This document shows, piece after piece, positions 2,667 to 45,962 of a stretch of DNA of 64,000 bases. This stretch comes from Candidatus Stahliibacteriota bacterium (GTDB lineage: Bacteria > Hydrothermota > Tepidihabitantia > SM23-42), in assembly GCA_030602565.1 (NCBI GenBank), contig JAUVZL010000007.1, forward strand, positions 761-64,760, written 5' to 3'. A program made the translations under genes and the position numbers. The first letter of the stretch is position 1. The number at the start of each line of letters is the position of its first letter. Under the pieces are notes generated by a model. It ran no database searches, was not told where the DNA came from, and was given only the letters and a program-made list of their open reading frames with translations.

Positions 2667-4796
2667 ATGAAGAAATTTCAACTATTTCTTGTTCTTGTTA
2701 TATTGGTTTTGTTGAGTTGTGCACCGACATATGTTGAGAGTATTGTTACATCACAAGGTACAGTTTTGGAAATAGACGGAGCTCGATTTGAAATACCGGA
2801 AAACAGTGTTCGGGATTCTACGTGGATCAGGATTGAGAAAAAGGGCGTGGCAAAGAAAAACTATGAACAGGGATATCGTATCAAAGGTGAATCTTTTGTC
2901 ATAAGCCCAGAGACATTGTTTTTTGAGAAACCTTTGCGGTTTTCTTTGCCAGTCAAGGACTCAAACGCTGCATTAGGCGCTAAAATAGGCAGTGGGTTCG
3001 TTTCTTTGGCAAGTTCGTTTGTTGAGGGTGAAACACTGCGGGCGCAGCTACGGCACGGCGGTGAATACTACCTTATAAGTAAACCTGCAGCATACGGCAT
3101 AAGAGATCATTCAGAGACTAAAGAGGGGCTGCTCATTGTCAGTGATATATACGTGAGTGATTATATCAAGAATTTCAAAAAGGTATTAAGGCAGGGCGGT
3201 TATGATTTTCCGATATGGACATTTGTTTATTCAAATGACAATTCAATTGAAGAAAATGCTAAATTTCTCGCTGAAGAACTTAAGACATTACATGAACAAT
3301 ACGGCAATTTCCGCCTTGATATCGTGAGTTTTGGTATTGGTGGCTTAATTGCACACCGCTATATTGCAGATACAATGACATATCAAAGAGACATTTCGCC
3401 CGCAATTATTGCAGTAGGTACACCTTTTTTCGGTTCGAGCTTTGCGAATATTGATAGTATTAAGAAAGCAAAAAGCCCTTATCGTTTCTTTTTTGTTGAT
3501 GGTATGGGAGAAAATGCAAAAGACTTAGAACCTGAATCAGATTTTATCACCTGGCTAAAAAAACATAAAGGTTTACGTGGCGGTTGGTTAAAAGATCCTG
3601 AGGAAGATAAAAACCCTGCTTCTATTAGAGGAAAATTTGGGTTTCCTGGAGAGTTAACCGAAGAAAAAGATGGTGATGGATTGGTTTCTTTATCTTCCAC
3701 AATGCTGACACCAATTGAGCCAGATCCATTCCCTTTAAGTCATTTTGATCTATTTGAAGACAGTGATGTTCATGAAGTAACTAGTGAATTTGTTCAACTG
3801 TATCGTAGTTTTGCGTGGATGGATTTTTTTCTTAAGGTCTGGGAAGAAGATGAACCATTTTCAGAAATCAGCAAGCTCTGGGAAAGAGAAATAAAATTAC
3901 ATTATCGAAATACGATCGATTTTGAAATATTGCTTGAATGGAATGAGAATATGCTGAAGTCGACACCTGAAAATGCTATCCTCATAACTAATGGCGATAA
4001 TGATACTTATCCTGCCTGGTTTCTTCAAGAAAAAGGTATTAGAGACGATATTATAGTAGTAAACCGCAACCTTTTAAATTTAAATGAATACGTACGTTTC
4101 CTTCTCAAACGCGGTTTACCTTTGGACCTCAGTGAAGAGGATTTGGATAGTCTGAAGCATAAGAAGAACGGTGAATTTATCACCAAGTCTGACCAACTTA
4201 TTGTGATGCTTATCGAGCAGAATGAACGACCTTTGGTTTTCTCAACAACCGTATATAGCCCCCAACTTTATGGTTATCCCTTGGAACTTGTTGGAAAAGT
4301 CTATGAAATTGCCGAAGAGAAAGGCGTTGACATAGTCAGGACAACAAAATTACTATATGAGGAGTTCAGTTATGATAAGGTTTCTTCGGTTCCTTTTGAA
4401 TCCTTGAGCGAACCTATTCAACAGTTATGTGGCAACTATGCGGCTTGTGCTCATGAGTTATCAATTGCACTTTTAGATGAAGAAAGATATGATGAAGCAC
4501 TAGCGGCTAATGCATTTGCAAAACGATTCGTAGGTTCTGAGAGTAGTATCATTTTATATTATAATGATGCGCTCATTTTTCTCAAACTCAATAATAAAGA
4601 AAAAGCTGACAGTGCTTTTCGACGATTGCTTAGCAAAGCAGACACTGGTGTTTTGATGAAGAAAAACATTGCAAAATATTATTACGAGATGGATATGAAA
4701 GAAGAAGCCATAAGAATACTTGCCGAGTGTTTGAAGGAAAACCCTGGTGACAGTGAACTCCCTGAGTTAATCAAGAAATACCAGGAGGGCTTATAG
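2667..4796 (+). CDS. secreted/lipoprotein with alpha/beta-hydrolase-like domain (DUF676/PGAP1-like) and C-terminal TPR-like repeats
   Basis: 709 aa; signal peptide with Cys (LLSCAPT); nucleophile-elbow-like segment IVSFGIGGL; helical repeat C-terminus. Confidence 0.45.
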   Translation: MKKFQLFLVLVILVLLSCAPTYVESIVTSQGTVLEIDGARFEIPENSVRDSTWIRIEKKGVAKKNYEQGYRIKGESFVISPETLFFEKPLRFSLPVKDSNAALGAKIGSGFVSLASSFVEGETLRAQLRHGGEYYLISKPAAYGIRDHSETKEGLLIVSDIYVSDYIKNFKKVLRQGGYDFPIWTFVYSNDNSIEENAKFLAEELKTLHEQYGNFRLDIVSFGIGGLIAHRYIADTMTYQRDISPAIIAVGTPFFGSSFANIDSIKKAKSPYRFFFVDGMGENAKDLEPESDFITWLKKHKGLRGGWLKDPEEDKNPASIRGKFGFPGELTEEKDGDGLVSLSSTMLTPIEPDPFPLSHFDLFEDSDVHEVTSEFVQLYRSFAWMDFFLKVWEEDEPFSEISKLWEREIKLHYRNTIDFEILLEWNENMLKSTPENAILITNGDNDTYPAWFLQEKGIRDDIIVVNRNLLNLNEYVRFLLKRGLPLDLSEEDLDSLKHKKNGEFITKSDQLIVMLIEQNERPLVFSTTVYSPQLYGYPLELVGKVYEIAEEKGVDIVRTTKLLYEEFSYDKVSSVPFESLSEPIQQLCGNYAACAHELSIALLDEERYDEALAANAFAKRFVGSESSIILYYNDALIFLKLNNKEKADSAFRRLLSKADTGVLMKKNIAKYYYEMDMKEEAIRILAECLKENPGDSELPELIKKYQEGL

Positions 4797-16228: not shown

Positions 16229-17242
16229 TTATTTTTTACGATACCTACCAATTCTGAGGATTTTGGCAATATTGGCATTGGCACTGATCACCGGTTCAAT
16301 AATCGGTATGCTGGCAGATAGTAAAGTGGATACACCTGGTCCATGACCAGCATAGCGGCAATCACCGTGGATGACAATGCCTATGGTCACCGCGCCCTTG
16401 CGAAAACTCCTGCCAAAGAGATTATCGTGGTCCATCAAGGCAACAAAATCACCAAAGCGCAACTTGTCGATCTTATATTTTTTGATGAACTTCTTATCAG
16501 TTGTCATGATGTCATAGTCGCCGCCAGTCATCATCATGCTGCCCGTACCTGAACCCATCAATGCGGCGGGGATTTTTGTCGTAACTGGTACCTGGATTAT
16601 TTGGCCCCGTGTTTTTATCGACATTTTTCGAATGAGCCTGGGATCGAGGTTATAGACTGCAATATCAGGATAGTCTAAGAGTTTCAAGCCCTGACCAAAT
16701 CCTTTTATCAGAATTTTGTCATCAAGGGTCATTTTTTCAAGCGTCACATCAGCAAAGTCGATCATCACGTGTTCGGCACCGCCGTGGTGGCCAGTAACTA
16801 CTCCTTTCTTACCTTTGGCATCGCCTGATTTAATGATCGCCTCGTTGCCTATGCAAGCATAAAAGACATACCCTGCATTAGGTCCTTCATATCTTTTTTT
16901 CTCATCGAGTATTGTAGAAGCGCAGGGTTCGAGATGATCTGCTTCCCATCCAAAAGCAGGGTCACCCACTTTGACATTGTAGACAATACCGCCAGTTCCG
17001 GGCAAATGGAACGGCTTTCCAGCTGAGTCCACACTGTGCATCCGGCGTCCACCAGGGTTCGCTACTTTGCCTTGAACTGACATCATCACCAATTTTTTTT
17101 CATTTATCCGAAGCATTGTTTTCCTCCTTAGATTTTCTATTATAAGAGGCTTTTTTCTAATGTCAACAATAATGTAGAAGGTTGAGAAAGGGCAGAAGAG
17201 GATGACTGGAAGGCGATAGGGGATCATCAAAGCGGTTGACAA
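16229..17242 (-). CDS. hypothetical protein (possibly co-transcribed with the radical SAM gene)
   Basis: 337 aa ORF; Gly/His-rich segments, no assignable family from sequence alone. Confidence 0.4.
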   Translation of the reverse strand: MSTALMIPYRLPVILFCPFSTFYIIVDIRKKPLIIENLRRKTMLRINEKKLVMMSVQGKVANPGGRRMHSVDSAGKPFHLPGTGGIVYNVKVGDPAFGWEADHLEPCASTILDEKKRYEGPNAGYVFYACIGNEAIIKSGDAKGKKGVVTGHHGGAEHVMIDFADVTLEKMTLDDKILIKGFGQGLKLLDYPDIAVYNLDPRLIRKMSIKTRGQIIQVPVTTKIPAALMGSGTGSMMMTGGDYDIMTTDKKFIKKYKIDKLRFGDFVALMDHDNLFGRSFRKGAVTIGIVIHGDCRYAGHGPGVSTLLSASIPIIEPVISANANIAKILRIGRYRKK

Positions 17243-17335
17243 TTATGATTTGCTGCTTATAATACCCCAAGAAAAAGATTTTCAGAGATTGAAATTTGGT
17301 TTTTGGAGTTTGTAATTTTCCGCTGAAAGCGGGGA

Positions 17336-17409
17336 GGGCCTGTAGCTCAGTTGGTTAGAGCAGCTGACTCATAATCAGCGGGTCGGGGGTTCAAGTCCCT
17401 CCGGGCCCA
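17336..17409 (+). tRNA. tRNA-Met (anticodon CAT), elongator-type (or tRNA-Ile2 if lysidinylated)
   Basis: cloverleaf folded by hand: acceptor GGGCCTG/CGGGCCC, D-arm GCTCAGTTGGTTAGAGC, anticodon stem GCTGA/TCAGC loop CTCATAA, T-arm GGGGG-TTCAAGT-CCCTC; lacks initiator 3xGC anticodon stem. Confidence 0.85.
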
Positions 17410-17568
17410 TTTTAAGGAGAAACTCTAATCTCTAAATACGAAATTCTAAATTCCGATTTATGGTCGAGAATCCTCGCAAAACGGGACAATTTCAAAAATC
17501 CAATGCTCGAAATTCAAAACTGTTTCTGTAGGCAAAACACAGATATAATTAGCTGATAGCAGGAGAAA

Positions 17569-17961
17569 ATGAAAGTAACCAAGAAGAATATAGAAAAGCA
17601 TTTATCTAAATGGCAAGTTAAACTCCAGTTACGGGATTGGGATATATCTGTTAAGATTATACGCACAAGGTGGCGCAAATCAGGTGATATAAAGGTAGAT
17701 TTGGAAAATAGAAAAGCAACGCTTCTATTAAATCATAAACCCAAATGCCTGAATCTTGAAGAAATAATTGTGCATGAGTTATTACACATCAAGTTATATG
17801 GTTTGGATCAAATGATTGAGGATTTAATTGACATTCTGTATGGTAAGCGGAAGACAAAGAAACGACAGTTTGCATGGAATCAATTTATGTCGCTGCTTGA
17901 AACTACTGTTGAGGATTTGACAAAAGGATATCTTTATCATACAAATAACTCAAATAACTAA
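17569..17961 (+). CDS. small hypothetical protein with HExxH motif (HELLH)
   Basis: 130 aa; VHELLHIKL; SD AGGAG 4 nt upstream. Confidence 0.4.
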   Translation: MKVTKKNIEKHLSKWQVKLQLRDWDISVKIIRTRWRKSGDIKVDLENRKATLLLNHKPKCLNLEEIIVHELLHIKLYGLDQMIEDLIDILYGKRKTKKRQFAWNQFMSLLETTVEDLTKGYLYHTNNSNN

Positions 17962-17964
17962 TTC

Positions 17965-18528
17965 ATGGTTGAAAGCGTGAGTAAATCTAAACTCGATATG
18001 CGTTTATATGGTTTATGTGTATATCTTCGTCCTGTAATTATTGAAGACGCAGCAATAATTAGAAAATGGCATAATGATCCTGAACTAATGAGGATGGCAC
18101 GTGTAGGTGAGAAGAGAACTACCTTAAGGCAGGAAAGAGAAGATATAAAAATTGCACGCAGATCCAGTAATCAGACATATCATTTGATTTTGACCAAATT
18201 AGATAATACTCCTATTGGTTTTCTCAGATTCAATTTTATTGATAAATCAAGCGGTAATGTATGGTTTCGTATGATGATTGGAGAAAAGAAATCGCAAGGA
18301 AAAGGTTATGCTCGTGAGGCACTGCAGTGTTACTTAAAGTGGATGTTTGCTAAATTGAGGATTCACCGGGTTACGCTTGAATGTTATTCAACAAATCTAA
18401 GAGGTATCAAATTCTTTAAAAAAATAGGGTTTCAAAAAGAGGGTGTACTAAGAGAAGCGGTTTTCATTAATGGAAAATACCACGATATTATCTCGTTTGG
18501 TATGCTAAGAAAAGATTTCAAAGACTGA
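17965..18528 (+). CDS. GNAT family N-acetyltransferase (RimJ/RimL-like)
   Basis: 187 aa; acetyl-CoA binding region QGKGYAREAL; Acetyltransf_3-like N-terminus. Confidence 0.75.
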   Translation: MVESVSKSKLDMRLYGLCVYLRPVIIEDAAIIRKWHNDPELMRMARVGEKRTTLRQEREDIKIARRSSNQTYHLILTKLDNTPIGFLRFNFIDKSSGNVWFRMMIGEKKSQGKGYAREALQCYLKWMFAKLRIHRVTLECYSTNLRGIKFFKKIGFQKEGVLREAVFINGKYHDIISFGMLRKDFKD

Positions 18529-18543
18529 CATGCGATCAGATTG
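18525..18543. repeat. junction motif copy 1: CTGACATGCGATCAGATTG (includes stop TGA of GNAT gene)
   Basis: identical 15-nt core ACATGCGATCAGATT shared with 4 downstream junctions; following frame gives MRSDCKDCGNI* mini-ORF. Confidence 0.85.
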
Positions 18544-18549
18544 TAAGGA

Positions 18550-19743
18550 TTGTGGAAATATCTGATTATGCTAAAAGGCATCCATGAGATAGTGCTCGGT
18601 CTTTACTGGCGTTCTTGCCAGTATCCCTGGTACATCTTTGTCAATATTGGACTTGCTGTTATATTCTATTTATTGGCTCTTAAATATGGACCTACTCTTC
18701 GCACGTTTATTTGTGACAAAGTGCTGGGATTGAAATGTCCGTCTGATTCAGTCTTCGTCCTTTTACTGGATATTGGAATTCCTTTTATTCTCTGCTCTAT
18801 ACTCGTGGTCATACTGTCTCTGCCCTTGTTGTTGTATAAGGGCATAGTTTTTAATGTTTTGGGATACGCTCTTTTTTACTGGTTTTTGTTCTTCTCTATC
18901 CAGCTTTTTTATAATCTTCTGAGGAAACAGATTACTGCGCATTCCTTAACAATACCGTTGTTTGTTATAGGGATATTTCTGCTCCTTGTTTTTGTGATGG
19001 CATTATTTTATTACCCGAATCAAATCAAGCAGCGTTTTCTGGCATTTGAATCGGAAAAAATAACGGAAAAAGTCAGGATAATCCATTTATCCGATGTCCA
19101 TGCGGAAAATTATGGCTCACGAGAAAAAGAATTAATAAAGATCGTGAGTTCGCTTAATGCAGATATTATCTTGATAACTGGGGATATGTTCATCAAGCCA
19201 TACAAATACAATACCAGAGGATTTAATGCTGCGGTGAAAATCCTTGATCAATTGCATTCAAAGCATGGCGTCTATCTGGTAGAAGGGCATCACGATTACC
19301 AGGAAACCCATTACCTGGCTGATGTTCTTGGCGATAAAATCAATGTACTTAATGAGCAGTGGCACTGTCTTGATTTGCTTGGCATATCGATTTTTGGAGC
19401 AACTCTGTACAGCGAAATTGAGCCATTTAGTGAACCTGTTCCAGACGACAATTTTAACATATATTTCTCACACGATCCAGACAGAATGGAATACCGCAAA
19501 GACACGGATTTTGATCTGGCGTTGTTTGGTCATACTCATGCCGGGCAGGTTTACATTCCGGTACTCTCGTATTTAATCGTAGGGAAATACAGACATGGTC
19601 TCTATGATCATCATGGTATACCGATATACGTTAATGCTGGTATTGGATTAGAAGGATATCTTGCTCCACGTATACGTTGGTTTACCTATCCGGAGGTGGT
19701 TGTGATTGATTTGGAGCCTTTGGATCCAGGAGGCGAGGACTAA
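18550..19743 (+). CDS. membrane-anchored metallophosphoesterase (calcineurin-like)
   Basis: N-terminal TM helices then IIHLSDVHAE, ITGDMF, GHHDY, GHTHAGQ motifs; start TTG 18550 or ATG 18568. Confidence 0.7.
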   Translation: MWKYLIMLKGIHEIVLGLYWRSCQYPWYIFVNIGLAVIFYLLALKYGPTLRTFICDKVLGLKCPSDSVFVLLLDIGIPFILCSILVVILSLPLLLYKGIVFNVLGYALFYWFLFFSIQLFYNLLRKQITAHSLTIPLFVIGIFLLLVFVMALFYYPNQIKQRFLAFESEKITEKVRIIHLSDVHAENYGSREKELIKIVSSLNADIILITGDMFIKPYKYNTRGFNAAVKILDQLHSKHGVYLVEGHHDYQETHYLADVLGDKINVLNEQWHCLDLLGISIFGATLYSEIEPFSEPVPDDNFNIYFSHDPDRMEYRKDTDFDLALFGHTHAGQVYIPVLSYLIVGKYRHGLYDHHGIPIYVNAGIGLEGYLAPRIRWFTYPEVVVIDLEPLDPGGED

Positions 19744-19744
19744 T

Positions 19745-20575
19745 ATGCAAGCGAACAGTAATAGCGAAAAGAGTAAAGTCATAATGATGCTGAAGAGGAT
19801 TTTTGGTATACTGCTTGGCTTAATGATAAGTGCCATTGGTATGATTGTACTAGGGAATGAAAAATCGCTATTAGGATGGTTTTTCATGTGGTATCTGCCC
19901 TTGTTCTTAGGAGGAATTATTGCAGGCTACTTTGCACACGATAAAGGGTGGATTTCAGGTTTTATAATTGCTATGATTTGGGCAAGTAGCTCGGTATTTA
20001 CTGATCTAAGTGGCAAAACCCCAATGATTTTTGTTCTCTGGCATACAATGGGATTACCAGTTGGTGCTGCAAGTGGATATTTTGGTCAGTTCTTAGCACG
20101 AATGATCTCGGCAAAAATGCAGAGAAAAATTACCGCCGTAATTGTAGGCTCATTTGTTGCATTTGCATTATCAATGATATTGATTTGTCTTTTCGGTAAT
20201 GTAGGCAAAACGTGTTCATATAATGGAGGTCAGTTTTGGTTGAAAGACTTGATAAATAATTGTCTACCATTGCTTATTGGGGGTATTTTTGCAGGTATTA
20301 TTGCTCAACGACATGGCTGGGTCTGTGCTTTTCTCAGTTGGCTTTTCTTCCAAGCATTTACTATTGTAATCTTACTTATGATAGGACTTGGCAAACCAAT
20401 CATTTCCTCATTTGCCACATATGAGTGGTCATTTATTGCCAGAACGATGTCTCGTCTTATTTCTACATTGATTCCCGCTTGGTGGTTATATGCAATCTCG
20501 TTGTTTTCCGCTGTCATTGGTGGATATCTTGGACAGCTTTTGGTACAGAAATATCATAAAAGAATTCATAGCTAA
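19745..20575 (+). CDS. polytopic membrane protein, hypothetical
   Basis: multiple hydrophobic helices; ATG 19745 preceded by GGAGG. Confidence 0.5.
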   Translation: MQANSNSEKSKVIMMLKRIFGILLGLMISAIGMIVLGNEKSLLGWFFMWYLPLFLGGIIAGYFAHDKGWISGFIIAMIWASSSVFTDLSGKTPMIFVLWHTMGLPVGAASGYFGQFLARMISAKMQRKITAVIVGSFVAFALSMILICLFGNVGKTCSYNGGQFWLKDLINNCLPLLIGGIFAGIIAQRHGWVCAFLSWLFFQAFTIVILLMIGLGKPIISSFATYEWSFIARTMSRLISTLIPAWWLYAISLFSAVIGGYLGQLLVQKYHKRIHS

Positions 20576-20591
20576 CATGCGATCAGATTGG
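20572..20591. repeat. junction motif copy 2: CTAACATGCGATCAGATTGG
   Basis: stop TAA of upstream gene, 1 nt, ATG of next gene (MRSDW...). Confidence 0.9.
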
Positions 20592-21506
20592 TCTAAGAAA
20601 TACTGGAAAAATTTTTTGATTGAACAACGTAAATACCAATGGTTTGAAGATACAGTGGAAAAACTTGCTGATTGGATGCACTTAGAACACGGAATGGTTG
20701 TAGTCGATGTTGGATGTGGTTTGGGACAGTTGGGCCTGTTATACTGGCCTCACTTCGGCAGACAGGGACGATACATAGGAGTAGATCTTTCATATAAGTT
20801 GCTCCGGGATGCCAAAAAGGCTGCAAAAAACTGGATCAAGAAAGGTAAGTCATATTTTATAACAGGGGATGCTTACAAATTACCTTTCCCCGATGCCTTT
20901 GCGGACTGCGTTATGTGTCAGACCCTTTTTTATCACCAAAGAACTCCACAAATTGCACTAAGTGAGATGGTTCGTATAGCAAAACCTGGCGGTTTTATTG
21001 TATGTAAAGACCTTGATTATTTATCAACGTTTCTGGCAAAGGATTTCACATCACTTCCTGAATTTACGCTCAAGGAACAACTGCTTTCCGCGAAGGTTCT
21101 TTTGGTTTCACATAAGGGTAAAATAAAACTGGGCAGAGGAGATAACAGCATCGGTCGGAAAATTCCTATGATGATGAAAGAAGCAGGATTGGTCGATATA
21201 GATATAAAGAACAACGATCTTGTCTATTTTTTACAACCACCTTATGAAAGTCCACGTCAACAATATTATATCAGCATGTTAAAAAAGCGACTTAGACGAG
21301 AAAAAGATAATCTAACTTGGTGGAGGCAAGCAGAGGAAGAATTCGTAGCAGGAGGCGGTGAGAAAAATGATTTTATTCGTTATAAGAGGGTGGTGAATAA
21401 ACACAAATCATTATACAGAAAGCAGATAAAGAATGGTGAGTATTATCGCTGCACCCCAGGATATTTCTTGGTTACGATAGGTAGAAAACCAAAGAAAAGA
21501 AAATAA
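20577..21506 (+). CDS. class I SAM-dependent methyltransferase
   Basis: VVDVGCGLGQLG motif I; starts MRSDWSKKYW at junction motif. Confidence 0.75.
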   Translation: MRSDWSKKYWKNFLIEQRKYQWFEDTVEKLADWMHLEHGMVVVDVGCGLGQLGLLYWPHFGRQGRYIGVDLSYKLLRDAKKAAKNWIKKGKSYFITGDAYKLPFPDAFADCVMCQTLFYHQRTPQIALSEMVRIAKPGGFIVCKDLDYLSTFLAKDFTSLPEFTLKEQLLSAKVLLVSHKGKIKLGRGDNSIGRKIPMMMKEAGLVDIDIKNNDLVYFLQPPYESPRQQYYISMLKKRLRREKDNLTWWRQAEEEFVAGGGEKNDFIRYKRVVNKHKSLYRKQIKNGEYYRCTPGYFLVTIGRKPKKRK

Positions 21507-21527
21507 CTAACATGCGATCAGATTGGG
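21507..21527. repeat. junction motif copy 3: CTAACATGCGATCAGATTGGG
   Basis: read directly. Confidence 0.9.
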
Positions 21528-21712
21528 TAGCTATTTTAATGTGGATTTTTTTCGTGATGCCGATGGTAATTCTGTTAACGATAATCGCCCCGAGTCTGTT
21601 TGCGGATAAAGAAAGAGTATTTATCATACAGGGAATCATACTTTTCGTTGGAATTGCTATAATAATATTCAACATTATAAGAATAATTAAATCATTGAAG
21701 GATAAAGACTAA
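21512..21712 (+). CDS. small membrane protein (66 aa), starts MRSDW
   Basis: two hydrophobic helices. Confidence 0.35.
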   Translation: MRSDWVAILMWIFFVMPMVILLTIIAPSLFADKERVFIIQGIILFVGIAIIIFNIIRIIKSLKDKD

Positions 21713-21729
21713 CATGCGATCAGATTGGG
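21709..21729. repeat. junction motif copy 4: CTAACATGCGATCAGATTGGG (preceded by AAAGACT as in copy 1)
   Basis: read directly. Confidence 0.9.
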
Positions 21730-22289
21730 AACGCTTTTTCGATACTTTTCCGGAATTTGATTTCGAAGGGTATAAACTACGGGCTTTCCGGAAAAACGAT
21801 GCCGACGACCTATACAAATGTTTATCCGATCCTGACGTTACTGAATTAACGAGCTTTGAACTAAATTCATTTGACCAAATCACAAAACTGATCGAAGCCA
21901 GCAGCATCAAATTCAATAAAAAACATGGTGTAAATTGGGCAATAGTTGATAAAAAGACCGATCGGGTAATAGGTTTCTATGGTTTAGTATGGATCGACCA
22001 ACATAATTCCAGAACAGAAGTTGGTTTTATCTTGGCAAAGGAATATTGGAATAAGGGAATAACCACACAAGTTCTTAAACGGATTTTGGAATTGGTATTT
22101 ACCGAACTTGGTGTAAACAGCGTTGAAGCTACTGCAATGGTTGGTAATAATGCCTCAGCGCGAGTCTTGGAGAAATGCGGTTTCAAGAAAGAAGGCATAT
22201 TAAGAGAGTTGCGATATTGCAGAGGAAAATACCATGATTTTTGGAAATTCTCCCTATTACAGAAGGAGTGGGTACATGATAAGAACTAA
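21714..22289 (+). CDS. GNAT family N-acetyltransferase, starts MRSDW
   Basis: 191 aa; RimL-like pattern, NKGITTQVLK region. Confidence 0.75.
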   Translation: MRSDWERFFDTFPEFDFEGYKLRAFRKNDADDLYKCLSDPDVTELTSFELNSFDQITKLIEASSIKFNKKHGVNWAIVDKKTDRVIGFYGLVWIDQHNSRTEVGFILAKEYWNKGITTQVLKRILELVFTELGVNSVEATAMVGNNASARVLEKCGFKKEGILRELRYCRGKYHDFWKFSLLQKEWVHDKN

Positions 22290-22299
22290 CATGCGATCA
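22286..22299. repeat. junction motif copy 5 (partial): CTAACATGCGATCA then diverges; 17-codon leader ORF ends ATGA-overlapping next start
   Basis: read directly. Confidence 0.8.
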
Positions 22300-22340
22300 A
22301 AAAAGACAGAATGGTTTAAGGCCTATATGACGAATTTAGG

Positions 22341-23036
22341 ATGAAGAGGACATTTGGTGGTGTTTCTGATGAGAGAACAAGACAGGATGTTGATTTCATA
22401 ATTGATGTTCTTAACTTATCTGAAGGGGCAAAAATTCTTGAATTATTCTGTGGTATAGGAAGACACTCAATTGAACTCGCGAAGAGAGGTTATAAACCTG
22501 TTGGGATTGAATATAATCGAGAATATCTTAAAATCGCACAAAGCAAGTCGCAAGAGAAGAATGTTCATGTAAAATTTATTCAAGGCGATGTTAGAGAAAT
22601 TGAATTTGGTATTAATTTTGATGCTGCTATTATAATGTATCAGAGTTTTGGATACTTCAGCGATGAAGAAGACAAAATGGTTTTACAAAAAATCTATAAA
22701 GCCTTGAGACAAAACGGTAAATTTTTAATTGAAATTCTTAGCAAGGATTGGATTTTGAACAACTTTGTAGAGAATGAAGTGACTGAGGTAAATGGTATAA
22801 ACATAGATCAAACAAGAACATTCGATGCTACAACAAGCCGAGTGAATTTTACCATTAATAGACATTTAGAAGAAGGAGTGGTTACTAAAAAAGGTTCATG
22901 GAGACTTTATTCTTCATCTGAAATTATCAGCAAATTGGACAATATTGGATTCAAGTATGTTGCAGGTTACAATGATTTGGATAAAACTCCACTAACAAAG
23001 AATACAAGACTCATGCGTCTGGTGTTCGAAAAATGA
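22341..23036 (+). CDS. class I SAM-dependent methyltransferase
   Basis: ILELFCGIGRHS motif I. Confidence 0.75.
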   Translation: MKRTFGGVSDERTRQDVDFIIDVLNLSEGAKILELFCGIGRHSIELAKRGYKPVGIEYNREYLKIAQSKSQEKNVHVKFIQGDVREIEFGINFDAAIIMYQSFGYFSDEEDKMVLQKIYKALRQNGKFLIEILSKDWILNNFVENEVTEVNGINIDQTRTFDATTSRVNFTINRHLEEGVVTKKGSWRLYSSSEIISKLDNIGFKYVAGYNDLDKTPLTKNTRLMRLVFEK

Positions 23037-23659
23037 GTAGGTATAAAGCCATAATTTTCGATTGTGGCGGTGTTATCTTCACTTGTTCATTCGATAAAGC
23101 ACTCAACTATTGGGCAATGGTGAGTGGCAAGGATATTAATGAAATCAAAAATAAGTTTGATTTCGACGAAATATTTCAAGGACTTGAGAGAGGTGAAATT
23201 AATTCTACCGCGTTCAGAAAACATGCTTTGAGTAAACTAGGGTTAAAAATTAGTGATGAGAAATTTGACAAAGGATGGAATAGTATATATTTAGATTTAG
23301 TCCCTGGTATCAAACAGTTGCTCCAAGAATTAAAGCAAAAGCATAGACTGGTTGCCTTAACAAACACAAATGAAATACATGCAAAAAAATGGAAAATTAC
23401 GTTTGCATCTATTCTCAATTATTTTGAGAAAGTGTTCAGTTCCCACGAGATCCATGCACGAAAGCCAGAACGAAAAGCATATAACACCGTATTGAATTAT
23501 CTCCGATTAGAACCCAATGAAGTAGTATTCTTAGACGATAATCCTGAATACGTTCAAGCTGCCTCTGAGATGAATATTGCAAGTATTCACGTTACGTCAT
23601 TCAAGCAAATGGTTGAAGACCTAAGTAAGCTTGGCGTGGAGGTTAAGAGTGCCGTTTGA
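23033..23659 (+). CDS. HAD-superfamily hydrolase (variant motif I DCGGV)
   Basis: IIFDCGGVIF, later LTNTNE and FLDDN motifs. Confidence 0.6.
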   Translation: MSRYKAIIFDCGGVIFTCSFDKALNYWAMVSGKDINEIKNKFDFDEIFQGLERGEINSTAFRKHALSKLGLKISDEKFDKGWNSIYLDLVPGIKQLLQELKQKHRLVALTNTNEIHAKKWKITFASILNYFEKVFSSHEIHARKPERKAYNTVLNYLRLEPNEVVFLDDNPEYVQAASEMNIASIHVTSFKQMVEDLSKLGVEVKSAV

Positions 23660-23714
23660 GGTGTTAAGGGACATCTGTCCTTGATATTATTCCAGATTGA
23701 CATTATAATGTTAT

Positions 23715-24398
23715 ATGCACGATGAATCACAACGGGAGTTATTTGCTTATTATAATGAGAGAGCACAGGAATACGACGATGTTTATTGCGGCAAAGGTAC
23801 CGCAATTCCACATCAACATCTATATAAGAAAGATGCAGCGAAAATCAGCAATATCATTTCGTCATTTGGTAAAGGGCACATTATAGATATAGGTTGTGGT
23901 ACAGGTTATTGGCTACCACATTATGCGCGAAACTGTGAGAAAATAACATTGATTGATGTTTCGGAAAAAATGATTGCAGAGTGCAGGAATAAATGCGACA
24001 AACTCGGTATTACAAACAAATGTCATTGTGTAAAAGGTGATTTCTTTGAACTTGATTTCAAAGACCACCTATTTGATAGTGTACTTGTTGGATTTCTTCT
24101 AAGCCACTTGACGCAGAAAACAGAAAAAGCCTTCTTTGAGAAACTCAGACGTATCACTGTAACAAAAGCACAAGTGTTTTTTATCGATACTCTATGGAAC
24201 AAACTACGCCAGCAATATAGAAAAAAAGAAGGAATTCACGAACGCTTTCTAAATGATGGACGTAAATTCAGGATATATAAAAGATATTTCACTAAATCTG
24301 ATATCCATGAAATTTTCAAGAACAACGCCCTCAAACTGATTTCATTCTCTCAAGGACATGTATTTTTTGCAGCAACTGGAGTGATTGAGGAGCAGTAG
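23715..24398 (+). CDS. class I SAM-dependent methyltransferase
   Basis: IIDIGCGTGYW motif I. Confidence 0.7.
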   Translation: MHDESQRELFAYYNERAQEYDDVYCGKGTAIPHQHLYKKDAAKISNIISSFGKGHIIDIGCGTGYWLPHYARNCEKITLIDVSEKMIAECRNKCDKLGITNKCHCVKGDFFELDFKDHLFDSVLVGFLLSHLTQKTEKAFFEKLRRITVTKAQVFFIDTLWNKLRQQYRKKEGIHERFLNDGRKFRIYKRYFTKSDIHEIFKNNALKLISFSQGHVFFAATGVIEEQ

Positions 24399-24415
24399 AC
24401 TGTCTCTTCTTAGCT

Positions 24416-24536
24416 AACTCACCAGGATGTCCGAGATATTGAGTTCATCGAAATGCATTAGTATCGCCTGTCCCGAGTAATATCGAGGGGAGTAAACCGA
24501 GATGTCGAAGATCTCGAGTAAATCGAGAGGTTATAG
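24416..24536. repeat. short copy of composite dispersed repeat (left end AACTCACCAGGATGTC, internal GTATCGCCTGTCCCGAGTAATATCGAGGGGAGTA and CCGAGATGTCGAAGATCTCGAG blocks)
   Basis: blocks identical to 28282-28437. Confidence 0.8.
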
Positions 24537-28281: not shown

Positions 28282-28555
28282 CAACTCACCAGGATGTCGG
28301 AGATATCGTCGAAGATATCGAGGGTAATGAGATGAAGTATTTGAGATGCGTCAGTATCGAGTATCCCGAGATGTCGAAGATCTCGAGCACACCGAGAGGC
28401 ATCAGTATCGCCTGTCCCGAGTAATATCGAGGGGAGTATCCCGAGATGCTGAAAGTCCTGAGGAATCGAAGGGATTTGACCCCAATTTCTTCCCTTAGTA
28501 TCGAGAGAAGCCGAGATGAAGAATTGAAGGGACCTGATCCCCAACCTTTCCGCCA
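28282..28555. repeat. full-length composite dispersed repeat (MITE-like): left end CAACTCACCAGGATGTC, 8-bp-periodic TATCGAG/GTCCCGAG interior, right end tandem GAATCGAAGGGATTTGACCCCAATTTCTTCCC-like units
   Basis: fragments of same element at 24416-24536, 30322-30338 (left end only) and 31487-31576 (right end only). Confidence 0.8.
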
Positions 28556-29193: not shown

Positions 29194-29823
29194 CTAACGG
29201 GGTGAATCAGTGTCCCGAGTGTATCGAGAGAAGGTTGTCGAGGGGATTTTCTTTTTGTTAGTTTCATTTTTGTTTATTTTATATATTATGTGATAACGAT
29301 ACCATATGCCTCTTGTTTTTCTGAAACCTGCTTTCTCATAAACTCTTATTGCTGGTATATTTTCTTTATGGGGAGGGACTAGAAGGATATCAGCTTTTGT
29401 CTCGGAAAAAACGTATTGCACGATGGTTTTCATTACCTCGGTGCCGTACCCTTTATTCCAGTAAGTTTTGATTAACTTAACATCAGTCATTAGAGCAAGC
29501 TTATTTTTTGGAGCTTTATAGTTTGGACACGACCAGCCTGATCTTAATCTTCCCAACCCACTTTCTCCAATCCGCCCTTCTTTCTTAAGTTTAACAATAA
29601 AATGGATTTCAGTGTTACCATACTTTGTTATATTTTTTTTATATTTCTCAAACCATTTGCAGATTTGGGCGTAATTCCAGTTTTTTGCAAAGCCAGCGTA
29701 CCGCATAATTTCGGGATCATTCCAGAGTTTTAATAGAAACTTCAAATGTTGTTGAGTCATAGGATGGATCACTAGATGTCGTGTCTTTATAATTTGCCTT
29801 TTTTTCATATTTTGTACATTCAT
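29194..29823 (-). CDS. GNAT family N-acetyltransferase
   Basis: 209 aa; acetyl-CoA-binding-like region NKGYGTEVM. Confidence 0.7.
   Translation of the reverse strand: MNVQNMKKRQIIKTRHLVIHPMTQQHLKFLLKLWNDPEIMRYAGFAKNWNYAQICKWFEKYKKNITKYGNTEIHFIVKLKKEGRIGESGLGRLRSGWSCPNYKAPKNKLALMTDVKLIKTYWNKGYGTEVMKTIVQYVFSETKADILLVPPHKENIPAIRVYEKAGFRKTRGIWYRYHIIYKINKNETNKKKIPSTTFSRYTRDTDSPR
29209..29272. repeat. ~65-bp dispersed element GTGTCCCGAGTGTATCGAGAGAAGGTTGTCGAGGGGWTTTTCTTTTTGTTRGTTTCATTTYTG (copy 1)
   Basis: copies at 30622-30694 and partial 31367-31411. Confidence 0.85.
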
Positions 29824-30621: not shown

Positions 30622-30694
30622 CAGTGTCCCGCCTGTCCCGAGTGTATCGAGAGAAGGTTGTCGAGGGGTTTTTCTTTTTGTTGGTTTCATTTCT
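30622..30694. repeat. ~65-bp dispersed element (copy 2, with extra GTCCCGCCT prefix)
   Basis: see 29209-29272. Confidence 0.85.
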
Positions 30695-31064
30695 GGGCTC
30701 CTTATATCTATTGGTTGCCGTAGGTCTCGTCGTAGATCTCGAAGTATTGAGAGGAGTGTATCGAGAGGCAATTTTTTCATAGACGGAGCAACCGTTTCTC
30801 CAAGTCTTAACAAGATGACACCATTTGCTTCTTTTGTAGCATTTGTCAAACGTTTAGATTTGACGCCATTTGTTTACAAAACAGTATAATCAAAGATAAT
30901 AAAGTCATATTGTCATGCACCGTCCCTACTTCCCAACAGTTAATTTTAGACAACCAGGCGGACGAGGATCGGTCTCAAGATTCTTTATCGAACGTAAAAT
31001 TCGAATAGCATCATTAGGGGAGAGTCTATAGATGAATTTTTCGGCTGATGGTTTTATTAAAACT

Positions 31065-45673: not shown

Positions 45674-45790
45674 TTAACCTCCTCGTTCAATAAATAAAAT
45701 GGTTTGAAAAGATGATATTCATAATGTCGTTAATGTCAATATAATGAATAGAAACTTGGACACATCCTTATCCCTTGATTCTGCGTTATA

Positions 45791-45962
45791 AAGGAACTTC
45801 TCGATGCGCCCCGTTCTGTGGGACTTACTCGAAGAGTAAAGAGTTACTGTTCGAGCTTGTCGAGAACATACATTAAGGAACTTCTCGATGCGTCCTTTGA
45901 TAAACTCAGGACTTACTCGAAGGATAAAATATTACTGTTCGAGCTTGTCGAGAACACACATT
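45791..45962. repeat. two tandem copies of an ~85-bp unit (about 85% identical)
   Basis: 45791-45874 and 45875-45962; AAGGAACTTCTCGATGCG...TTACTGTTCGAGCTTGTCGAGAACAYACATT. Confidence 0.85.

Follow-up and report, generated by a model that had tools for sequence, protein, structure and literature searches.

We describe a 21-base motif, ACTAACATGCGATCAGATTGG, that stands at five gene junctions in a 64-kb stretch of contig JAUVZL010000007.1 from a Candidatus Stahliibacteriota bacterium (assembly GCA_030602565.1, positions 761 to 64,760; this whole stretch is called the window below). Comparison of the window with related loci suggests that the motif is the boundary element of lineage-specific, mobile, promoterless and mostly single-gene cassettes in bacteria of the WOR-3/Stahlbacteria type, where it would double as a translation-restart module; we give this interpretation a probability of roughly 0.55. 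An earlier note on the same DNA had proposed either a recombination-built cassette structure or a reused start module, and the present analysis bears out both ideas: in related loci genes have been inserted, deleted and exchanged exactly at the motif, and the ATG of the motif starts a gene or a short open reading frame (ORF), its 3' end having, in a survey of 59 copies, the geometry of a ribosome-binding site.

A recurrent motif at gene junctions

As the earlier note had it, the motif occurs five times in the window, always on the + strand and at gene junctions; the full unit starts one base earlier than described there, at 18524, 20571, 21506, 21708 and 22285. The copies had been called identical, which holds for copy 3 (21506–21526) and copy 4 (21708–21728), both matching at 21/21 positions. 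Copy 1 (18524–18544, ACTGACATGCGATCAGATTGT) has two mismatches (19/21, ACTGAC...GATTGT), copy 2 (20571–20591, GCTAACATGCGATCAGATTGG) has one (20/21, GCTAAC) and copy 5 (22285–22299) keeps only its first 15 nucleotides (nt), followed by AAAAAG, a truncation that is identical in the related locus L032 (loci outside the window are referred to by such numbers). A stop codon of the upstream gene had also been placed inside every copy. This is correct for copies 1, 2, 4 and 5, with TAA or TGA at motif positions 2–4, whereas at copy 3 the upstream TAA (21504–21506) just precedes CTAAC.

A scan of the window allowing up to three mismatches returned matches at 18525, 20572, 21507 and 21709, against 0.00 expected from 100 shuffles, and the 11-mer core ACATGCGATCA recovers all five copies, bringing in the truncated fifth at 22289. 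No further copy with at least 16 of 21 matches was found on either strand of the whole window. The junction at 19739 (ACTAATATGCAAGCGAACAGT) matches the motif at 13/21 positions and is not significant alone; since matches of 12–13/21 do not rise above noise (about 198 were observed, and shuffles gave 261), it may at most be regarded as a possible decayed copy.

All five copies lie within a 3.8-kb part of an accessory island of about 7 kb, with a guanine-plus-cytosine (GC) content of 0.367 compared to 0.414 and 0.417 in its flanks. The rest of the window is ordinary chromosome, with genes for MiaB, LysS, ribosomal protein S1, MutS2, primase and RecJ (NCBIfam and PHROGs searches of 52 ORFs). Because all five copies are confined to this low-GC island, the motif is not the general junction of the organism, and the relatives carry exact matches on just one to four contigs apiece. 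The stop-start junction used throughout the genome, which the earlier note had named as a refutation of its own proposal, is thereby excluded.

Distribution and conservation of the motif

In total we obtained 59 distinct copies from about 40 loci, all from WOR-3/Stahlbacteria metagenome-assembled genomes (MAGs) and sediment metagenomes. An exact-pattern scan with one genome per species yielded 11 loci, ten of them from MAGs labelled 'candidate division WOR-3', 'Candidatus Stahlbacteria' or unclassified 'bacterium'; the eleventh, a match in a Fuerstiella MAG without the ACTAAC context, is probably due to chance. A metagenome scan added 16 contigs, White Oak River records from the sulfate-methane-transition zone (SMTZ) among them. 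Altogether the motif is present in NCBI MAGs and in JGI, ENA and Logan assemblies, from many samples. A phage origin was considered and rejected, the one IMG/VR hit being a 17-mer match without ACTAAC that we judged to be chance. A literature search for the motif, for MRSDW (the N-terminus that it encodes) or for WOR-3 cassettes found nothing.

All copies are co-oriented with their genes, and the arrays consist mostly of one-gene units 200–1200 bp apart; overall, copy spacing ranges from 202 to 4968 nt and every interval is a gene. A mismatch-tolerant search of the fetched loci gave four copies in L005, three to four in L012/L007 and L022 and two in many others, always in a single orientation. 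Elsewhere the arrays are appended to the 3' ends of genes for proteins secreted by the type IX secretion system (T9SS), of a NUDIX gene or of a gene for a 130-residue protein, with no tRNA nearby. In an alignment of 49 distinct copies, positions 0–20 are near-invariant (to a degree overstated by the way the copies were collected, see below), positions +21 to +24 read AAgA, positions −4 to −1 are purine-rich, and conservation stops beyond these limits.

Two further observations concern variation at the site. A C to T variant at position 13, which turns GATCAG into GATTAG within the central GATC, recurs in L005 (2584), L008 (5807), L012 (4321), L017 (1242, − strand) and L033 (1586), and could reflect a shared site lineage or a mutational hot spot. 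In one MAG, two contigs, L002 (5232–5358) and L010 (6136–6262), share a terminal 127 nt that starts exactly at the motif (ACTAAC...GATTTG) and is preceded by different cassettes; the 127 nt either occur twice in the genome or represent two alleles within the population.

Cassettes in new contexts

Homology breakpoints between loci coincide with the motif in every informative comparison, at no fewer than eight independent junctions, and this is strong comparative evidence, independent of any mechanism, that the motif is a cassette boundary. The clearest cases concern single cassettes in different surroundings. GNAT191 (21714–22289; acetyltransferase by Pfam, with the motif ATG as its sole possible in-frame start) is 92% identical to its counterpart in L012 over 590 nt, a stretch that begins with the first base of a motif and extends to the following motif, and both flanks are unrelated. 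The same cassette occurs in four other contexts (L012, L030, L031 and L032) with 92–95% identity. Its upstream neighbour is GNAT187, another acetyltransferase gene, in L032 and L031 and a gene for a 284-residue methyltransferase in L030, and downstream it is followed by a formyltransferase gene (L012 and L030), by GrpB (L031) or by the methyltransferase gene MTwfk (the window and L032). In a similar way, the S-adenosylmethionine (SAM) methyltransferase cassette MT309 (20577–21506) is found in L033–L035 with 94% nucleotide identity confined to window positions 20561–21526, and its neighbours there are a promoter-bearing NUDIX gene and then a HAD cassette, 86% identical to a cassette in L005. 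A protein 83% identical to that of MT309 (P0022) has been deposited as 'Candidatus Hodarchaeota archaeon', on a contig that is probably mis-binned. The small membrane protein cassette TM66 (66 residues, 21512–21712) is 98.7% identical at the nucleotide level in L037, where it comes directly after the gene that heads the array and before another methyltransferase gene. This resident 'head' gene is just 86.6% identical to that of the window, far less than the adjoining TM66, which indicates that TM66 moved recently between lineages.

The left end of the array provides the comparison at a single position. The stretch from the tRNA-Met gene through the head gene and GNAT187 to the motif is shared with L026 (88%), L032 (90%), L031 (80%) and L038/L039 (96.9%), and after it come four different gene contents: a metallophosphoesterase block in the window, GNAT191 in L032 and L031, MTwfk in L026, and a 130-residue GNAT with an ABC transporter in L038/L039. 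Copy 1 is the breakpoint in all of these comparisons; L038, for instance, matches the window at 96.9% identity as far as the motif, past which the two are unrelated. Window positions 18545–21707 are absent from all these loci, and as even the more distant L031 lacks this block, it was most simply inserted in the lineage of the window. The single motif of L032 at this position is a hybrid, in which ACTGAC, as in window copy 1, is joined to GATTGGgaacgc, as in copy 4; a crossover would therefore have taken place between positions 4 and 18, and this fits reciprocal exchange better than target duplication.

Other loci show the motif in orthologous or partly eroded form. In the orthologous tRNA-Met locus of L009 (90–93% identity up to window 17411) there is a NUDIX gene, a motif and a small membrane ORF, and L040 has the motif and a homologue of the metallophosphoesterase cassette after its head gene. 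In CP070834.1 (L043, 8385–8405), a complete WOR-3 genome, a solo decayed motif, ATTAACGTGTGGTTAGATCGG (15/21), comes right after the stop codon of the head gene, with about 470 nt of non-coding DNA and no cassettes beyond it; it may be an old empty site. Decayed copies are also present at the methyltransferase-NUDIX junction of L004 and in L030 and L031, and from all of these it would seem evident that copies erode once they are no longer exchanged.

The motif as a probable translation signal

The geometry of the reading frames around the motif was surveyed in all 59 distinct copies, taking as upstream ORF any co-oriented frame of at least 60 codons that ends between −15 and +5 of the motif start. 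Such an ORF precedes 50 of the copies; 34 of these stop at the motif's own TAA and nine at position 0. Downstream, the gene is fused in frame to the motif ATG in 21 of the 59, giving proteins with MRSDW N-termini, many of which look signal-peptide-like (MRSDWK followed by a hydrophobic run). In the window, the methyltransferase (20577), the membrane protein (21512) and the GNAT (21714) are such fusions, so the remark in the earlier note that unrelated genes begin alike was accurate, and the ATG of copies 1 and 5 opens mini-ORFs at 18530–18565 and 22291–22344. Non-fused copies follow a common pattern in which the motif ATG opens an ORF of 4–25 codons that ends at or near the downstream gene's own start. 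The real start codon lies 7–11 nt past the motif in 11 copies (exactly 8 nt in eight of these), and in those 11 copies the GG plus AAGAG/AGGA at the 3' end of the motif sits at Shine-Dalgarno distance. In 17 copies the downstream gene has its own signals farther on.

This geometry makes a dual role of the motif, as stop/start and as ribosome-binding site, a well-supported prediction; co-transcription from an upstream promoter and reinitiation at UAACAUG would complete the picture. Motif variants are non-synonymous (Q, L, G, I), one copy even has ATA instead of ATG, and since these variants change the residues, selection acts on the nucleotides and not on the peptide. Distant homologues of GNAT191 and MT309 have N-termini of the usual kind: those of GNAT191 start with MKLENFPDMFP... 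and those of MT309 with M..KKIDWSEERWK..., where the native Asp-Trp coincides with the GAT TGG of the motif. This coincidence suggests that MT309 was captured by joining to the motif at native GATTGG microhomology.

Ordinary translational coupling (ATGA, TAATG) also has stop and start codons within 1–4 nt and co-transcribed genes, but it requires just overlapping codons, and gives neither 21 identical bases between unrelated genes nor breakpoints of homology. Pairing with 16S rRNA, of the kind used for restart at termination upstream ribosome-binding sites (TURBS), was not apparent against the E. coli 16S rRNA: the duplex of the motif is no better than 79% of shuffles, nor did the 3' tail give anything. 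When the junctions are folded together with 40 nt of flank to the left and right, neither strand does better than its shuffles (z from −1.25 to +2.25), a lack of structure that suits initiation regions.

A proposed mechanism and its weak points

Starting from the observed boundaries, hybrid site and reading-frame geometry, we propose that recombination within the core of about 21 bp would produce a site with its left part from one copy and its right part from a second, so that circles or blocks of cassettes could be inserted, deleted or moved between arrays. The arrays would be attached downstream of an ordinary expressed gene, at its 3' end. The TAA of each motif would end the gene upstream of it, and the AUG one base on (UAACAUG) would allow the ribosome to restart; the cassette would then be either fused in frame (MRSDW...) or reached via a mini-ORF of 4–25 codons, with the GG plus AAGAG/AGGA at the motif 3' end serving as Shine-Dalgarno sequence for the cassette's own start codon.

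The least certain part of this proposal is the agent of recombination. Our tentative preference, at somewhat less than even odds, is for a sequence-specific recombinase, dedicated or co-opted, encoded elsewhere in the genome. Three features argue for a trans-encoded enzyme. The conserved block is sharp-edged, as a site recognised by a protein or RNA would be; the ten bases at positions 9–18 (CGATCAGATT) have no evident translational role, and yet are kept in most copies, even where the mini-ORF is irrelevant; and cassettes have repeatedly been gained in new contexts at high identity. More speculatively, though we do not consider it far-fetched, the WOR-3/Stahlbacteria may possess a gene-capture platform of their own, integron-like in function and mechanistically unrelated, in which a sequence-specific enzyme, guided by protein or RNA, would act on an unstructured, asymmetric site of 21–24 bp that is at the same time a portable stop, restart and ribosome-binding module. 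A captured ORF would then join a host operon as an extension of it and be expressed immediately, with cassettes circulating between lineages.

A precedent for an enzyme acting from a distance are the dif modules of Acinetobacter plasmids, along with integrative elements that exploit Xer: small gene modules bounded by a 28-bp site are shuffled among replicons by the host XerC/XerD, which are encoded elsewhere (PMC13141974, PMC6449649). These systems resemble the arrays described here in having no recombinase gene beside the module. The sites themselves differ, as pdif is an imperfect 11-6-11 dyad in alternating orientation (C/D then D/C), whereas our motif is asymmetric, 21–24 nt long and always in direct repeat, with a resemblance to the XerD arm of only 6–7/11 (ATGTTA, by eye). 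The modules of Acinetobacter are also plasmid-borne, while the arrays of WOR-3 are chromosomal and have a site that is also a translation signal.

Several observations weigh against the interpretation given at the beginning. Concerning the enzyme, 113 ORFs from 27 loci searched against PHROGs contained one unrelated integrase, 4.5 kb from the motif in L024, and none of the matches listed for the 52 window ORFs (NCBIfam, PHROGs) is a recombinase; ten flanking ORFs analysed with Pfam encode T9SS-secreted proteins, a TonB receptor and tetratricopeptide repeat (TPR) proteins, without any recombinase. The motif has no hairpin. By inspection, just 5 of 10 pairs around the central GA are symmetric, a weak dyad that would be unusual in the site of a tyrosine or serine recombinase. 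As to conservation, the copy set was collected through exact matches and the invariance of the motif is overstated because of this; among the copies that were not ascertained in this way only about half have a perfect centre (counted by hand), and their per-position decay has no clear pattern of arms and spacer. Part of the variation could be loss only, as deletions between 21-bp direct repeats need no enzyme. Furthermore, G at position 0 goes with the downstream MT309 in two contexts and G at position 3 stays with the upstream GNAT187; if this is no coincidence, the crossover point would not be fixed, which favours homology-driven exchange.

Alternative explanations

Shuffling driven by homology, without a dedicated enzyme, is the alternative that survives best, and we consider it possible but on the unlikely side. 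The motif would be kept as a translation-coupling and ribosome-binding module and would serve in addition as a patch of 21–25 bp for recombination by RecA, slippage or template switching. Its length is close to the minimum for RecA-type pairing. No adjacent recombinase was found for any of the about 40 loci, the motif lacks structure beyond its weak dyad, TAA, ATG and the 3' GG plus AAGAG have clear translational roles, and the linkage of the two G variants makes the crossover position seem variable. In the decayed arrays of L030 and L031, too, the flanks ACTAAC and CAGATTGG outlast the centre. Against all this stand the sharp edges of the block and the retention of its central bases, and the rarity that insertion through about 21 bp of homology should have in a cellular genome; yet cassettes of 94–98.7% identity adjoin much more diverged DNA.

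There is a precedent for such shuffling in the hyperplastic regions of T4-type phages, where a short expression signal, the promoter early stem-loop (PeSL), flanks small accessory ORFs, and recombination leads to insertions, deletions, replacements and mini-circles in a modular fashion (PMC2839356, PMC4122927). This is the best analogue of an expression motif that doubles as a recombination handle, and in both cases the end points of indels and replacements between close relatives fall in the motif. PeSL, however, combines a sigma-70 promoter with a terminator stem-loop, while the motif described here is shorter, has no stem-loop and coincides with no promoter match; the phages have hyperactive recombination, whereas here the motif is found in a cellular chromosome.

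A purely regulatory site, an operator or RNA target of one regulator with unrelated changes in gene content nearby, would agree with a constraint at the nucleotide level that is independent of coding, and with the constant position of the motif at gene starts on the sense strand. It is nevertheless improbable, given that breakpoints fall on the motif at all of the informative junctions (at least eight) and that a hybrid motif exists; complementarity to 16S rRNA did not exceed that of shuffles (with only E. coli 16S tested) and there is no Rfam match.

We regard as still more improbable that the repeats are target-site duplications, in which an integrase or transposase would make staggered cuts around a 21-bp target and gap filling would duplicate it, the incoming DNA needing no motif, as occurs with the repeats of clustered regularly interspaced short palindromic repeats (CRISPR) at spacer acquisition. 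The co-oriented identical direct repeats with unrelated inserts are what this model predicts, it would explain the first origin of new cassettes, and MT309 was apparently joined at a native GATTGG (Asp-Trp) microhomology. The window copies, on the contrary, are not duplicates of the empty site of L032: ACTAAC in copy 4 versus ACTGAC, and GATTGT in copy 1 versus GATTGG, correspond to reciprocal exchange with an incoming motif. A given cassette also keeps its boundaries across several genomes, the strict co-orientation and in-frame fusions would demand heavy selection, and no Cas1-like or transposase gene was seen. Compared to a CRISPR array, with regular spacers of about 30–40 nt, the intervals here are gene-sized, one gene in each.

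A classical integron, or a cluster of attC sites lacking the integron integrase (CALIN) with the motif as part of attC, is hardly credible, even if the likeness of the arrays is considerable. Integron arrays are likewise made of promoterless, co-oriented, mostly single-gene cassettes of mixed cargo, and the units of 200–1200 bp with GNAT, methyltransferase, NUDIX, HAD and small membrane protein genes are typical in this regard; expression depends in both on an upstream promoter (here a promoter-like site, recognised in the sequence alone). A short ORF at the integron recombination site, such as ORF-11 in attI1, can even couple translation into cassettes without start signals (PMC8876359, PMC4670013, PMC11511950). 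The sites are nevertheless of a different kind: attC is a folded element of 55–140 bp, and the motif an unstructured direct repeat of 21–24 bp that holds stop and start codons 1 nt apart and leaves no intergenic space. No attC inverted repeats (R''-L''...L'-R') and no R''/R' core pair were found at the window junctions, which do not fold beyond shuffles, and no IntI was found nearby among the matches listed; the arrays lack an adjoining IntI, and each genome has several loci at which they are appended to the 3' end of an ordinary gene.

An artefact of assembly or binning, by collapsed repeats or chimeric joins at a shared k-mer, is negligible, since a repeated 21-mer could in principle mislead steps at k=21 but at no more than 25 nt the repeat does not reach the final k of the assemblers (31 to 127), each junction therefore being spanned by real k-mers, and an independent Logan assembly (SRR14872667) is identical base for base over 17365–24489 (7125 bp), with the motif present in assemblies from many samples; the collapsed repeats that the earlier note had feared are thus excluded. 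On balance, the array appears as a variation on the gene-cassette idea that matches none of the systems described so far, and there is a real chance that its mechanism is new.

Gene content of the island and other features of the window

The island genes are all on the + strand. A perfect sigma-70-type promoter sequence (TTGACA-16-TATAAT, 17236–17263, from a consensus scan only) precedes the tRNA-Met gene (CAT anticodon, 17336–17409; ARAGORN and Rfam) and is a candidate driver of read-through into the array. It is one of two perfect 12/12 promoters of the same type, the other at 17139–17166 on the − strand, that face apart between a DUF4438-like gene and the tRNA-Met. The position of the array downstream of tRNA-Met, pointed out in the earlier note, is correct and appears to be a local circumstance, as arrays elsewhere have no tRNA nearby. 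Homology with the orthologous locus of L009 stops at 17411, and L009 has, about 130 nt past its tRNA-Met, a second partial tRNA 3' end (AAGTCCCTCCAAACCCATTCATT, 3560–3720) that looks like an att-type remnant of an element integrated at the same tRNA. For the window, a genomic island bounded by a repeat of the tRNA 3' end was rejected, the second copy being absent. An Rfam 15 scan of the window at gathering score matched the tRNA only, so that the motif fits no known RNA family.

The head gene (17569–17961) encodes a 130-residue HExxH protein (VVHELLHIKLYG) without a Pfam match and labelled 'predicted metal-dependent hydrolase' at JGI; it belongs to a conserved WOR-3/TA06 family, with more than 400 homologues of 125–166 residues whose source labels include WOR-3, TA06 and Bathyarchaeota MAGs. 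At other loci its stop codon is directly followed by the motif, and its 3' end often bears appended motif arrays. We considered this protein as an array-specific factor and discarded the idea, as the family is widespread and conserved and is missing from arrays at other loci.

After GNAT187 (187 residues, 17965–18528), whose TGA is at positions 2–4 of copy 1, the mini-ORF opened by that copy (MRSDCKDCGNI*, 11 codons) stops 2 nt before the ATG at 18568 of a membrane-anchored metallophosphoesterase cassette (18568–19743), a 68%-identical homologue of which is the one found in L040. Next comes a polytopic membrane protein of 276 residues (19745–20575) with a faint DUF3792 match, then MT309, TM66 and GNAT191. 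The mini-ORF of copy 5 (MRSKKTEWFKAYMTNLG*, 17 codons) overlaps the ATG of MTwfk (22341–23036), a SAM methyltransferase gene whose homologue in L021 (71% nucleotide identity) has a motif on each side. Compared to the homologues in L021 and L026, with N-termini M[DN]WFKD[FL]YD..., the window shows loss of a portion of the motif and a 1-nt frameshift within the first codons (22291–22360); the mini-ORF is, by this comparison, the frameshifted remnant of the native N-terminus (M[DN]WFKD...), and MTwfk now begins at an internal ATG that overlaps the mini-ORF stop (ATGA). A HAD hydrolase gene (23033–23659), still part of the low-GC island, follows with an ATGA overlap and without motif, and the last island gene encodes a third SAM methyltransferase (23715–24398) with its own promoter-like site (23681–23709). 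No convincing terminator was found within the array before 23660. The cargo is thus a mixed accessory set, and its composition of two GNAT, three SAM methyltransferases, a HAD hydrolase and a metallophosphoesterase, as predicted in the earlier note, was confirmed by Pfam.

Some repeats were detected outside the array. An intergenic family with units like CCGAGATGTCGAAGATCTCGAG and GTATCGAGGGGAGTA has two copies in the window (24426–24504 and 28370–28448, 85% identical) and another in L008 (114–194); one of them is located at the right-hand end of the low-GC island and contains the point at which the Logan contig breaks off. There is also a 62-nt direct repeat (29211–29272 and 30634–30695, 95% identical, 1.4 kb apart) and two tandem copies of a unit of about 87 nt at 45788–45962 (79% identical).

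Significance of the arrays

To our knowledge, integrons are the one well-understood route by which bacteria stockpile and express promoterless genes, with dif modules as a second and narrower case. The motif arrays look like a third solution, in a phylum that has barely been studied and is almost uncultured, and their site logic is different, with a short unstructured sequence that would be crossover point and translation signal at once. At the level of proteins, the motif explains why unrelated proteins in these MAGs share the MRSDW N-terminus, a point of relevance to annotation and to the calling of start sites. A dedicated enzyme, if there is one, would form with the motif a new recombinase-site pair with a compact, asymmetric 21-bp target, of interest to genome engineers. 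If there is no enzyme, the arrays would be the cellular counterpart of PeSL shuffling in phages, in which an expression signal alone creates cassette-like modularity.

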